Source: Shigella phage KNP5. Taken from it: a DNA stretch of 64,000 nucleotides. The stretch lies in the sequence record KX452698; one strand, 5' to 3'. Positions 28,604 to 32,726 of this stretch are shown here, one piece after another (the stretch's first letter is position 1; every line of letters begins with the position of its first letter). The position numbers and the translations under genes are program-made. The notes beneath the pieces were generated by a model. That model did no database searches, was not told where the DNA came from, and saw only the letters and a program-made list of their open reading frames with translations.

Positions 28604-31600
28604 ATGGCTACTTTAAAACAAATACAATTTAAAAGAAGCAAAACCGCAGGAGCACGTCCTGCCGCTTCAGTATTAGCCGAAGGTGAATTGGCTATAAACT
28701 TAAAAGACCGTGTACTTTTTACTAAAGATGACCAAGGAAATATTATTGATCTGGGTTTTGCTAAAGGCGGTAGCATTGACGGGAATGTTATTCATATAGG
28801 AAACTATAATCAAACTGGTGATTATACTTTAAATGGCACCTTCACTCAGACAGGTAATTTTAATTTAATCGGTATTGCTCGAGTAACTCGCGATATTATT
28901 GCCGCCGGGCAGATTATGACCGAAGGCGGAGAACTTATTACAAAAAGTTCAGGTACATCACATGTTCGTTTTTTCGATAGCAATAGCCGCGAACGTGGAA
29001 TCATTTATTCACCGGCTAATGATGGATTAACTACACAAGTACTTAATATCAGGGTTCAAGACTACGCCGCTGGTAGCGAAAGCACTTATGCATTTTCAGG
29101 CAATGGCCTATTTACTTCACCTGAAGTATCAGCATGGAAATCTATGTCAACTCCTCAGATTTTGACTGATAAAGTTATTACAGATGGGAAGAAGACAGGC
29201 GATTATGACATCTATTCATTAGCAAATAACACTCCATTGGCAGAAAGCGAAACTGCTATTAACCACCTTCGTGTTATGCGAAATGCAGTAGGATCTGGTA
29301 TATTCCACGAAGTTAAAGATAATGACGGGATAACTTGGTACGCCGGTGACGGGTTGGAGGCCTATCTTTGGTCGTTTACCTGGTCCGGTGGATTGAAAGC
29401 AGGTCATTCTATTTCTATAGGTCTTCCGGGTGGCTCTAAAGGATATTCTGAATTAGGGACTGCTTCAATTGCTCTTGGAGATAATGATACTGGATTTAAA
29501 TGGTATCAGGATGGATATTATTTCAGCGTCAATAATGGAACGAAAACATTTTTATTTAGTCCTAGCGAAACAACTAGCCTAAGAAAATTTGTAGCTGGAT
29601 ATTCTACTAACGGAACCGATTTAACTACTCCTCCTACTGAAAACTATGCTCTTGCTACTGTCGTGACATATCACGATAATAACGCGTTTGGAGATGGTCA
29701 GACTCTTTTGGGATATTATCAAGGCGGTAGATATCATCATTATTTTCGTGGAAGAGGAACAACTAATATTAATACCGCTGGAGGATTATTAGTTACTCCT
29801 GGTAATATTGATGTTATTGGTGGTTCTGTTAATATCGATGGTAGAAATAATGCTTCTACATTGATGTTTAGAGGTAACACAACTGGTAGTAGTTCAGTTG
29901 ATAATATGACAATTTCCGTATGGGGTAACACGTTTACTAATCCTAGTGTAGGTAATCGTAAAAATGTCATGGAAATTTCTGATGCAACTAGCTGGATGAG
30001 CTATATTCAAAGACTTACTACTGGCGAAGTAGAAATGAACGTTAATGGTTCATTTGAATCATCTGGTGTTACTGCTGGAGATAGAGGAGTTCACACAACA
30101 GGTGAAATTTCATCTGGAGCGGTGAATGCGCTTCGCATTTGGAACGCAGATTATGGTGCCATTTTCCGTCGTTCAGAAAACAGTCTTCATATTATTCCAA
30201 CTGCCTATGGTGAAGGCAAAAATGGCGATATCGGTCCACTTCGTCCATTTAGTATGTCTTTAGATACAGGTAAGGTCGTTATTCCTGATTTAGATTTAAG
30301 TTATGCTTCTTTTGCCGCAAATGGTTATATTAAATTCGGCGGTCATGGCGCTGGCGCTGGCGGTTATGATATTCAGTATGTTCAAGCAGCTCCTGTTTTC
30401 CAGGAAATTGATGATGATGCTATAAGTAAATATTATCCTATTGTTAAACAGAAGTTTTTAAACGGTAAAGCTGTTTGGTCTTTAGGTACTGAAATTAATT
30501 CAGGTACATTTGTTTTACATCATTTAAAAGAAGATGGTTCACAAGGCCATACATCAAGATTTAATGCTGACGGTACAGTTAATTTCCCTGATAATGTTCA
30601 GGTTGGCGGTGGTGAAGCTACTATTGCTCGAAATGGTAATATCTGGTCTGATATTTGGAAATCGTTTACTTCAGCAGGAGACACTACAAATATTCGTGAT
30701 GCAATAGCTACTCGTGTTTCTAAAGAAGGCGATACGATGACCGGTAAGTTGACTTTATCTGCTGGAAATGATGCCCTTGTTTTAACTGCAGGCGCGGGTG
30801 CTTCATCGCACATCCGTAGTGATGTAGGTGGTACAGGTAACTGGTATATAGGCAAAGGCGGCGGCGATAATGGTCTAGGTTTTTATAGTTACATTACACA
30901 AGGCGGTGTATACATAACAAATAACGGCGAAATATCGCTTTCTCCTCAAGGTCAAGGAACATTTAATTTTAATAGAGACCGCCTTCATATAAACGGTACA
31001 CAATGGGTTGCGCATAAATCTGGCGCCTGGGGTGACCAATGGGGTTTAGAAGCTCCGATATTTGTAGATTTTGGATCCGTCAGCAATGACTGCTATTATC
31101 CTATTATTAAAGGAAAATCTGGTATTACTAACGAAGGATATTTTTCCGGCGTAGATTTTGGTATGCGACGCACTACTAATAACTGGGCGCAAGGTATTAT
31201 TCGTGTAGGTAACCAGGAAAATGGTTCTGACCCGCAAGCTATATATGAATTCCACTATAATGGAACTCTGTTTGTTCCTAACATGGTTCAAACTGGAGCA
31301 AGATTATCAGCTGGCGGTGGTGACCCGGTGTGGACTGGGCCATGTCTTGTTATTGGTGATAATGATACTGGTTTAGTCCATGGCGGTGATGGCCGAATCA
31401 ATATGGTTGCCAATGGTGTTCATATTGCTTCATGGTCATCTGCTTATCATCTCCATGAAGGTCTTTGGGATACTACTGGTGCTTTGTGGACTGAGCAAGG
31501 AAGAGCTATTATTTCTTTTGGTCATTTAATCCAACAGAGTGATGCATATTCAACGTTTGTCCGTGATGTTTATGTCCGTTCTGATATTCGCGTTAAAAAA

Positions 31601-31915
31601 GACCTCGTTAAATTTGAAAATGCTTCTCAGAAGCTTTCTAAAATTAACGGTTACACTTATATGCAGAAGCGAGGCCTGGATGAGGAAGGTAATCAGAAAT
31701 GGGAACCTAACGCCGGTTTAATTGCTCAAGAAGTTCAAGCTATTTTACCAGAATTAGTTGAAGGTGACCCTGATGGTGAAGCTTTACTTCGTTTGAACTA
31801 TAACGGTGTAATTGGTTTAAATACAGCTGCAATCAATGAGCATACCGCAGAAATTGCAGAACTTAAATCAGAAATCGAAGAACTTAAAGCATTAGTTAAA
31901 TCATTGTTAAAATAA
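28604..31915 (+). CDS. 37: long tail fibre distal subunit gp37 with C-terminal chaperone-like/coiled-coil module
   Basis: 1103-aa ORF; N-terminus [22 protein letters not shown] typical of gp37; C-terminal ~120 aa end in a heptad-like helix ([22 protein letters not shown]). Confidence 0.85.
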
Positions 31916-31946
31916 TAAGAGGGGCTTCGGCCCCTTGGAGGTTTAT

Positions 31947-32726
31947 ATGGCAGTAACAGGACCGTGGGTAGGATCGTCTGCAGTAGTTAATACAGGACAA
32001 AATTGGATGGGTGGTGCGGCCCAACGATTAAGAATGGGCATTCCGTTCTGGATGAGTAATATGATAGGTCGATCTGTTGAAGTAATTCACACGCTTGGAG
32101 CAGACCATAACTTCAATGGTCAATGGTTCCGAGATAGATGTTTTGAGGCAGGTAGTGCACCTATAGTGTTTAATATCACTGGAGATTTAGTATCATATTC
32201 TAGAGATGTTCCTTTATTCTTCATGTACGGAGATACACCGAATGAATATGTTCAACTGAACATACACGGCGTAACGATGTATGGTCGTGGTGGGAATGGT
32301 TGGGCCGCTGGTGCAATTGGAGCATCTGATGGCGGTGTATGTATCCAGAATGATATAGGTGGACGTCTGCGAATTAATAATGGCGGAGCTATTGCCGGTG
32401 GCGGCGGCGGCGGCGGTGGTTATTCACAAGCCAACAACTGGGCGGGAAAATATGTTTGTGGTGGCGGCGGCGGTCGTCCATTCGGCTTAGGCGGAAATAA
32501 TGGTGCTCGATGGCCTGGTGGTAATGCTAGTTTGACGTCTCCGGGTGCTGGCGGTAATACTGGTACAAGGTATTATGCAGGTGGCGGTGGTGAAGTTGGT
32601 CAGCCAGGACAATATGCTAATCCAGGTGCTGGTTATTCAACACCTCCGACAAGTCCTGGCGCTGCTGTAGCAGGATCAGCTCCAACATGGCAGAATGTTG
32701 GAGCAATATATGGTTCAAGAGTATAA
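31947..32726 (+). CDS. 38: gp38 receptor-recognising adhesin (glycine-rich, T2-type)
   Basis: ATG at 31947 preceded by GGAGG; [20 protein letters not shown]... with several poly-Gly islands ([26 protein letters not shown]). Confidence 0.85.

Follow-up and report, generated by a model that had tools for sequence, protein, structure and literature searches.

A T2-Type Long-Tail-Fibre Tip Module in Shigella Phage KNP5: a gp37 Precursor with a Putative Self-Cleaving Chaperone and a gp38 Adhesin

In the window analyzed here, a 64 kb stretch of Shigella phage KNP5, we recognized with high confidence the distal end of a T2-type Tequatrovirus long-tail-fibre operon, which encodes a gp37 precursor and a gp38 tip adhesin. 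The fibre genes follow the order g35-g36-g37-g38-t, which is common to KNP5, PP01, AR1, and T2. Gene 37 (28604..31915, + strand) was assigned from its open reading frame, Pfam, and RefSeq matches as the 1103-aa precursor of the long tail fibre distal subunit, while gene 38 (31947..32726, + strand) was assigned from Pfam, PHROG, RefSeq, and structural matches as the receptor-recognising adhesin. The products are exact matches to YP_010278371.1 (gp37) and YP_010278372.1 (gp38) of Shigella phage KNP5, and the RefSeq annotation of both agrees with the present assignment. The module is real, ordinary, and already known, with a host-recognition tip that is annotated and structurally solved. No sequence feature contradicting the T2-type tip-adhesin reading was found.

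The gp38 Adhesin

An earlier, sequence-only reading placed the start of gp38 at ATG 31947, which holds, and gave its length as 260 aa, a count that included the stop codon; the protein has 259 residues. [quoted passage not shown] An AF2 model of gp38 (pLDDT 92.8) superimposes on 9V85 with an rmsd of 0.7 Å over 216 columns and on 6F45_D with a TM score of 0.83–0.87. As modeled, the fold is a β-helix combined with a polyglycine-II sandwich.

The Gp38_N match delimits an N-terminal attachment domain (aa 1–40; 31947..32066, + strand) that carries the Trp prongs W7, W20, and W35, each kept in 90% or more of the 111 homologues compared, and that forms three short helices in the AF2 model. In S16, the N-terminal domain of gp38 and its Trp prongs have a docking role (PMC6851490). 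The gp38 gene lies directly downstream of a gp37 ending in an S74 chaperone. By homology, gp38 is a T2/S16-type fibre-tip adhesin that would be present on the virion tip and bind the receptor there; in PP01, S16, T2, and T6, gp38 has been placed at the tip of the fibre and shown to bind a receptor in the outer membrane (PMC12892980, PMC3157838). The earlier reading had likewise taken gp38 for a tip adhesin and not a chaperone of the T4 type, a view borne out by the GP38, Gp38_N, 6F45_D, and 9V85 matches.

Glycine Runs and Receptor Loops

Glycine accounts for 23.6% of the residues in gp38 and for 32% in its aa 110–259, as compared with 6.4% when every long stop-free stretch in the window is counted. 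Much like the three or more poly-Gly islands described earlier at approximately these coordinates, three runs were found on the + strand: run 1, eight residues encoded by GGTGGCGGCGGCGGCGGCGGTGGT (G151–G158; 32397..32420); run 2, five residues (G172–G176; 32460..32474); and run 3, four residues (G212–G215; 32580..32591). This clustering is far beyond chance, because no other run of at least four Gly, and no other (GGY)≥4 tract, exists on either strand of the 64 kb.

Across 111 homologues, the three runs are the most conserved columns of gp38 (entropy 0.12–0.72, zero indels), as they form the polyglycine-II (PGII) scaffold. Run 1 columns have an entropy of 0.23 without gaps or insertions; run 2 retains five Gly in 102 of the 111 (entropy 0.12); run 3 reads G-x-G-G in 95, with pure GGGG being rare. 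S16 gp38 has an identical octa-Gly run, 151-GGGGGGGG-158 (PMC6851490), and at the structural level the runs pack as PGII helices within the scaffold (PMC6851490, PMC12892980). Indels are confined to the loops, and loops A–E show entropies of 2.0–2.6. Judged by conservation and homology, the Gly runs are invariant scaffold strands, and the loops between them vary and would determine the receptor.

The runs could instead be contingency tracts in which slippage alters length and thereby switches receptor specificity, and the earlier reading did describe the Gly codons as slippage- and recombination-prone determinants of specificity. Such a role would fit the uninterrupted (GGC)5 tract in the window, the 14-nt word GGTGGCGGCGGCGG that recurs at 32397 and 32460 with an in-frame 63-nt spacing bracketing loop B, and an N-gap at this place in the unverified KNP1 record, which shows the stretch to be hard to assemble. 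The lack of gaps or insertions in all 111 homologues nonetheless argues strongly against it. Apparent differences in run 1 length come from substitutions at its edges, synonymous GGT/GGC alternation breaks up pure repeats, the runs are packed scaffold helices, and mutations that alter host range fall in the loops (PMC6027323; PMC3157838). We therefore regard length switching as highly improbable and retain the scaffold reading, under which neither slippage nor a specificity role of the runs themselves stands. A split megablast match to KNP1 was rejected as a length polymorphism, given that it reflects the N-gap of the unverified record (window positions 32405–32542).

Recombination, the third element of the earlier claim, would be consistent with a single hybrid protein, P0084, in which the junction falls inside the first Gly run. 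This hints that Gly runs allow crossing over even when a T-even phage meets one that is not T-even. The idea that recombination takes place at conserved Gly motifs is well established and is credited in PMC3157838 to Tetart 1998. The longest exact DNA words common to the g38 genes of KNP5 and T2 are 13–14 nt and lie at Gly motifs. Comparison of codons revealed alternating GGT/GGC with synonymous variation between phages, as opposed to strict conservation of the DNA, in a table drawn from 5 confirmed loci in viral contigs; the number is small because the poly-Gly search pattern is unspecific.

Limits of the five receptor loops were taken from the PP01 structure (PMC12892980), the numbering of which transfers to KNP5 because both proteins are 259 aa without indels. 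On the + strand, loop A comprises W119–I124 (32301..32318; entropy 2.0, with indels), loop B Q161–V170 (32427..32456; entropy 2.4 over aa 159–171), loop C N184–W189 (32496..32513; entropy 2.4), loop D N204–Y209 (32556..32573), and loop E N225–S231 (32619..32639). Loop B is the same as in PP01 and loop E the same as in PP01 and AR1, while loop D has R208 where PP01 has G208. Mutagenesis and cross-linking have located gp38 specificity in the inter-Gly loops (PMC12892980, PMC3157838, PMC6027323). PP01 gp38 binds OmpC via loops D and E, with loop E being the main specificity loop and G208 cross-linking to OmpC loop 5 (PMC12892980).

The receptor of KNP5 is most likely OmpC, judging from loops that match those of PP01 and AR1 apart from R208 and S236. 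OmpC is reportedly also the receptor of AR1, a phage of E. coli O157:H7, as attributed to Yu et al. in 2000. Residue 208 is Arg in KNP5 and AR1 and Gly in PP01, Sfk20, pSs-1, and EC121; given R208, the OmpC-allele preference of KNP5 may differ from that of PP01. The recorded hosts of the closest relatives, Sfk20 and pSs-1, are Shigella and not O157, which is a point against the present reading. That the R208/S236 switch retunes which OmpC alleles (Shigella, O157, K-12) are usable, and so acts as a single-residue host-range determinant, is a speculative and rather unlikely proposal.

The gp37 Precursor and Its C-Terminal Domain

Pfam assigns two domains to gp37, Gp34_trimer at aa 450–550 and Peptidase_S74 (PF13884) at aa 993–1052. 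The latter match (E 2.3e-12, 47.5 bits against a gathering score of 22 bits) covers profile positions 1–57 of 58 and marks the start of an intramolecular chaperone/autocleavage domain of 111 aa (aa 993–1103; 31580..31912, + strand). When the PDB was searched by phmmer with the gp37 C-terminus, aa 914–1103 aligned with 6F45_A (E 2.9e-43), and the MYRF ICA domain matched weakly, with S993 and K998 lined up. No further match was obtained in this search; it did not recover the K1F endosialidase structure (3GW6), and gp37 is linked to K1F through the Pfam S74 assignment and the literature.

The S74 Ser/Lys dyad has been defined as S-x4-K (PMC3742443). This motif occurs at the start of the KNP5 domain as S993-D-I-R-V-K998, which aligns with SDRRIK of S16 and the MYRF positions, and Ser993/Lys998 is the predicted catalytic dyad. 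The predicted autocleavage site R992|S993 (DVYVR|SDIRVKK; 31577..31582, + strand) aligns with DLNVS|SDRRIKK in S16, where the cleavage site and a 113-aa IMC are described (PMC7917993), and has NVYIR|SDIRLK as its T2 counterpart. gp37 is probably cleaved between R992 and S993, with removal of the last 111 aa.

The 36 C-terminal residues of gp37 constitute five heptads with I, I, I, I, V in the a positions and N, H, L, L, L in the d positions, giving a core with I/L/V at 8 of 10 places. The corresponding leucine-zipper-like helix was delimited by its heptad register at aa 1070–1103 (31811..31912, + strand), and the 22-residue end that the earlier reading had called heptad-like (31847–31912) lies inside it. 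By position, the helix corresponds to the leucine zipper that ends the S74 domain; in MYRF, cleavage depends on the equivalent zipper (PMC3742443). The further suggestion of a chaperone-like, removable C-terminal module is in keeping with the Peptidase_S74 match and the conserved Ser/Lys and S16 cleavage motifs.

A heptad helix taken alone could equally suggest a structural coiled coil, with the gp37 C-terminal domain staying in the mature fibre as the tip and gp38 alongside. The intact S993/K998 dyad and cleavage motif argue against such retention, as does the homologous S16 domain, whose autocleavage uncovers the surface on which gp38 docks (PMC7917993). Processing of gp37 followed by capping with gp38 is also described for T2, the classical case, and for T6 (PMC3157838, citing Drexler 1986). 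Furthermore, the S74 domain of gp37 aligns with the extreme C-terminus of >25 PHROG fibre families, and invariable placement at the end of unrelated fibres is as expected of a detachable chaperone. A retained tip is accordingly very doubtful, and removal of the domain is the preferred reading.

The g37–g38 Junction and Expression Signals

An intercistronic C(UUCG)G hairpin, GAGGGGCTTCGGCCCCTT (31919..31936, + strand), found by sequence and folding, separates the double stop that ends g37 from the g38 ribosome-binding site. It has a 7-bp stem and a UUCG loop, with z = −2.3 for the 66-nt context. No U-tract follows the hairpin on the + strand, where it is not a canonical terminator; a role as mRNA stabiliser or in translational coupling is inferred. 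The Shine–Dalgarno sequence GGAGG of gene 38 (31937..31941, + strand) ends 5 nt before ATG 31947. TTG 31935 was rejected as the gp38 start, being a mechanical ORF start, because homologues begin with MAV at the ATG.

No late-promoter consensus was found between g37 and g38. The sole match near the g37-g38 module is TATAAATA (27908..27915, + strand), upstream of g36, which is probably the start of a g36-g37-g38(-t) transcript. This promoter role is a deduction from the consensus match, which occurs 7 times in the window versus 9 expected by chance.

Proposed Maturation and Receptor Binding

These features suggest a pathway in which gp37 is first synthesized as a precursor of 1103 aa, whose S993–K1103 segment, by analogy with its family, would act as an intramolecular chaperone, the leucine-zipper helix gathering three chains and nucleating the trimeric β-helix. 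Once the trimer has folded, Ser993/Lys998 would cut R992|S993 and the chaperone would leave, as homology with S16, T2, K1F endosialidase, and MYRF implies. The exposed ...RDVYVR tip would then be capped by one gp38 molecule, the three-helix N-terminus of which would insert W7, W20, and W35 into three equivalent gp37 pockets in the manner of the S16 structure. The remainder of gp38 forms the β-helix and polyglycine-II sandwich; conservation and the 9V85 match show its Gly runs to be the invariant scaffold, from which loops A to E protrude as the receptor-binding face. Loop E would enter the cleft between OmpC loops 5 and 7.

Comparison with Known Systems

PP01 has a gp38 of the same length with R208G and S236N as the only RBD changes, eight more substitutions in the attachment domain (aa 4–19), and a nearly identical gp37 C-terminal chaperone. 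Gene order is alike, but the gp37 shaft is mosaic, with 61–99% nucleotide identity per 150-nt window. AR1 shares R208 and S236 as well as a gp37 of 1103 aa, and its RBD equals that of KNP5 except for S257P; differences comprise G22V and I32A in the attachment domain and gp37 shaft patches down to 69–80% nucleotide identity.

The S16 gp37(3)-gp38 tip complex (6F45) displays the same three-domain gp38 with octa-Gly 151–158 and three Trp prongs, and an S74 chaperone in gp37 with the shared cleavage motif xxxV(S/R)|SD(R/I)R(I/V)KK. In contrast, gp38 identity is ~46% and the loops differ, and KNP5 gp37 carries 12 inserted residues ahead of the tip. T2 shares the Pfam architecture of both proteins and the SDIR(V/L)K motif, and its gp38 is 48% identical over the full length. 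T2 gp37, however, has 1341 aa and would release 99 aa, and the gp38 loops differ; for T2-like adhesins the reported receptors are OmpA, OmpF, or Tsx, not OmpC (PMC12032242). The K1F endosialidase IMC (3GW6) and MYRF ICA share with KNP5 gp37 the Pfam family, the Ser-x4-Lys dyad, and a terminal zipper helix, there needed for trimer-dependent self-cleavage. Those domains serve a tailspike enzyme and a transcription factor, whereas that of KNP5 sits on a fibre β-helix later capped by an adhesin.

T4 gp38, an assembly chaperone absent from a virion whose gp37 has its own receptor-binding tip (PMC6851490), shares with KNP5 gp38 its name and its place between g37 and t, downstream of g37. The notion that KNP5 gp38 is likewise such a chaperone, with the gp37 tip binding the receptor, draws on these likenesses only and is next to impossible, being refuted at the sequence and structure level: no full-length alignment was found (BLASTP yields at best a 26-aa segment with E = 18, and the sequences are unrelated), T4 gp38 matches neither GP38 nor Gp38_N, T4 gp37 has Collar and Phage_fiber but no S74 whereas KNP5 gp37 has S74 like T2 and no Collar, and KNP5 gp38 is nearly identical to a solved RBD.

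Implications

As a well-understood host-range cassette with an RBD 99% identical to a crystal structure with a mapped OmpC interface, the KNP5 module holds little discovery value. R208 and S236 are natural variants adjoining experimentally mapped contact residues. In practice, the assignment serves to predict OmpC as the receptor, R992|S993 as the site of gp37 maturation, and five loops as those that would be edited for host-range retargeting.

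Fibre-tip module and gp38

The Gly runs, both genes and the terminal heptad helix of gp37 are all present as the sequence-only reading described them, which confirms the observation and its position; its interpretation is largely correct, the role of the Gly runs excepted. Its annotation, structure and mechanism were all established before this analysis.

Gene 38 runs on the + strand from the ATG at 31947, as had been proposed, to 32726 and encodes 259 aa, the earlier count of 260 having included the stop codon. Its product is an exact match to RefSeq YP_010278372.1 (Shigella phage KNP5), 'tail fiber protein; host specificity', a description shared by the matched PHROG 2056, and the Pfam profiles GP38 (E 4e-73) and Gp38_N (E 1e-21) are also matched. 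In the PDB, gp38 aligns over its full length with S16 gp38 from the fibre-tip complex (6F45_D, E 6e-53), while aa 37-259 display two residue differences from the PP01 gp38 receptor-binding domain (9V85), and this near-identity shows the fold. An AlphaFold2 model built from 111 homologues (pLDDT 92.8) fits 9V85 to within 0.7 A and reaches a TM of 0.83-0.87 with 6F45_D; a PDB structure search with the model matched no other fold. T2 possesses the same architecture for the gp37 and gp38 families, whereas in T4, gp38 lacks GP38 and Gp38_N and gp37 lacks the S74 domain. Window gp38 has no similarity to T4 gp38 (best E = 18), and the reading of gp38 as an adhesin, not a T4-type chaperone, therefore stands alongside the profile and structure matches.

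Predicted processing of gp37

Gene 37 (28604-31915, + strand) encodes 1103 aa, terminates in a double TAA stop, and exactly matches RefSeq YP_010278371.1 (Shigella phage KNP5), 'long tail fiber protein distal subunit'. A full Peptidase_S74 profile lies at aa 993-1052 (E 2.3e-12), and aa 914-1103 align with the gp37 construct from S16 in 6F45 (E 2.9e-43). In S16, the last 113 residues of gp37 form an intramolecular chaperone, and autocleavage between the two serines of DLNVS/SDRRIKK exposes the gp38 docking surface (PMC7917993). Because the window motif, DVYVR/SDIRVKK, aligns with this site and with T2 (NVYIR/SDIRLK), cleavage is predicted between R992 and S993, which would release 111 aa; S993 and K998 are spaced as in the catalytic dyad, Ser-x4-Lys. 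In T2 and T6, gp37 is known to undergo cleavage before gp38 caps it (PMC3157838, citing Drexler 1986).

The last 36 aa of gp37 follow a heptad register with I, L or V in 8 of 10 core positions, matching the terminal helix quoted earlier. This helix is positionally equivalent to the leucine zipper that the homologue MYRF requires for self-cleavage (PMC3742443); the alignment to MYRF is weak. More than 25 PHROG fibre families that are otherwise unlike one another align with the S74 module at their very C-terminal end, which fits a folding module that can detach. Homology (S74, the S16 site, T2/T6) thus supports the earlier suggestion that the C-terminal module may be removed on maturation.

Conserved Gly runs and variable loops

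The three poly-Gly islands of gp38 comprise 8 Gly (run 1, 32397-32420, aa 151-158), 5 Gly (run 2, 32460-32474, aa 172-176) and 4 Gly (run 3, 32580-32591, aa 212-215), encoded by alternating GGT/GGC codons with synonymous differences from phage to phage. They are the sole runs of at least 4 Gly and the sole (GGY)≥4 tracts in the 64-kb window. Gly content reaches 32% in gp38 aa 110-259 vs 6.4% over all long stop-free stretches of the window, and G+C is 54.7% at 32290-32680 vs 35.8% for the window.

These runs had been regarded as slippage- and recombination-prone determinants of receptor specificity. Alignment of window gp38 with 110 database homologues (46-97% identity, T6 and M1 included) yielded entropies of 0.23, 0.12 and 0.72 for runs 1-3, with neither gaps nor insertions in runs 1 and 2 and a gap fraction of 0.01 without insertions in run 3, whereas loops A-E, delimited by the PP01 structure, have entropies of 2.0-2.6 and hold most of the indels. 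Differences in run 1 are edge substitutions, run 2 retains five Gly in 102 of the 111 sequences, and run 3 reads G-x-G-G in 95, pure GGGG being uncommon. In published work (PMC3157838, PMC6851490, PMC12892980), glycine-rich motifs pack as polyglycine-II helices that serve as scaffold, and receptor binding falls to the hypervariable loops; the mutations by which PP01 adapted to hosts in experiments (A123, Y159, Q161, N163, T207) map to loops (PMC6027323). The conservation, this scaffold/loop picture and the PP01 mutations therefore reverse the proposed role. What can be kept is the older idea of recombination at conserved Gly motifs (Tetart 1998, as cited in PMC3157838).

Possible recombination, and sequence assembly, at the Gly stretch

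The longest DNA words common to T2 and window g38, 13-14 nt, are located at Gly motifs. A 303-aa hybrid protein (L014, 6001-6912, in GCA_031535085.1, contig ABMKHH010000064.1; also at a second locus, L015) is gp38-type through its attachment domain and beta-helix as far as the first poly-Gly run, where it changes to another fibre tip and a Peptidase_S74 chaperone. Since the junction falls inside the Gly run, it suggests an origin by recombination at this motif. The hybrid gene comes after a 1140-aa S74 fibre gene, with an S78 protease-capsid fusion and then pb9-like and DUF6950 tail genes as neighbors, surroundings that do not look T-even.

A 14-nt direct repeat, GGTGGCGGCGGCGG, occurs at 32397-32410 and 32460-32473, either side of loop B, in frame at 63-nt spacing. 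Recombination between the copies would remove exactly loop B, a deletion found in none of the 111 homologues. Separately, the 'UNVERIFIED' KNP1 record (KX452694.1) contains a 67-N gap at 1407-1473 (window 32405-32542), and its exact coincidence with the Gly-codon stretch of g38 indicates that this GC-rich repeat is difficult to assemble; as a run of N in such a record, the gap was rejected as a real polymorphism.

Gene order and expression

The order g35-g36-g37-g38-t-asiA is the same in PP01, AR1, T2 and T4, with genes 37 and 38 co-oriented. Between the g37 double stop and the g38 ribosome-binding site (GGAGG, 31937-31941, +) an 18-nt C(UUCG)G tetraloop hairpin, GAGGGGCTTCGGCCCCTT, folds at 31919-31936 (+). 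With no U-tract 3' of it on the + strand, it probably serves in mRNA stabilisation or coupling, not as a terminator. The sole T4 late-promoter consensus near the module, TATAAATA (27908-27915), sits just upstream of g36, which would imply co-transcription of g36-g37-g38; it is a consensus match only, of a kind with 7 occurrences in the window vs 9 expected by chance. In the long tail fibre proximal connector gp35 (26761-27876; PHROG 1154), aa 58-123 match Pfam ILEI (interleukin-like EMT inducer) with E 4e-8, exceeding the gathering score.

Likely receptor, proposed mechanism and mosaicism

Loops A, B, C and E of window gp38 are identical to those of PP01, which differs in having Gly at 208 (loop D; R208 in the window) and Asn at 236 (just after loop E; S236 in the window); the AR1 receptor-binding domain differs only by S257P. 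The receptor bound by PP01 gp38 is E. coli O157 OmpC: G208 cross-links to OmpC loop 5 and Y230 to OmpC loop 7, and gp38 loop E inserts into the cleft between these two (PMC12892980). Given the near-identical loops, OmpC is most likely the receptor here as well, though perhaps with a different allele preference, since the closest relatives have been recorded on Shigella. By analogy with S16, T2 and the S74 family, the chaperone domain would drive gp37 trimerisation and then remove itself by self-cleavage, and a single gp38 would dock on the new tip via W7, W20 and W35 (docking mode from PMC6851490), each kept in at least 90% of homologues. The loop face of gp38 would then bind the porin.

The 24 kb around the locus share 99.9% DNA identity with phage KNP1 and about 97% with Shigella phage Sfk20, both of species Tequatrovirus pss1. 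Compared with Sfk20, pSs-1, EC121, AR1 and PP01, the gp37 shaft is a patchwork (29100-30400 and 31200-31550) in which blocks of 61-86% alternate with 95-100% nucleotide identity, and PP01 gp37 is 6 aa longer. The chaperone and g38 retain about 95-100% identity inside the PP01/AR1/pSs-1 group. Identity to T2 drops to only about 50% over the whole of g37 and g38, but is 95-99% at the end of g36 and in gene t: g37-g38 is a known hyperplastic fibre locus between conserved flanks.
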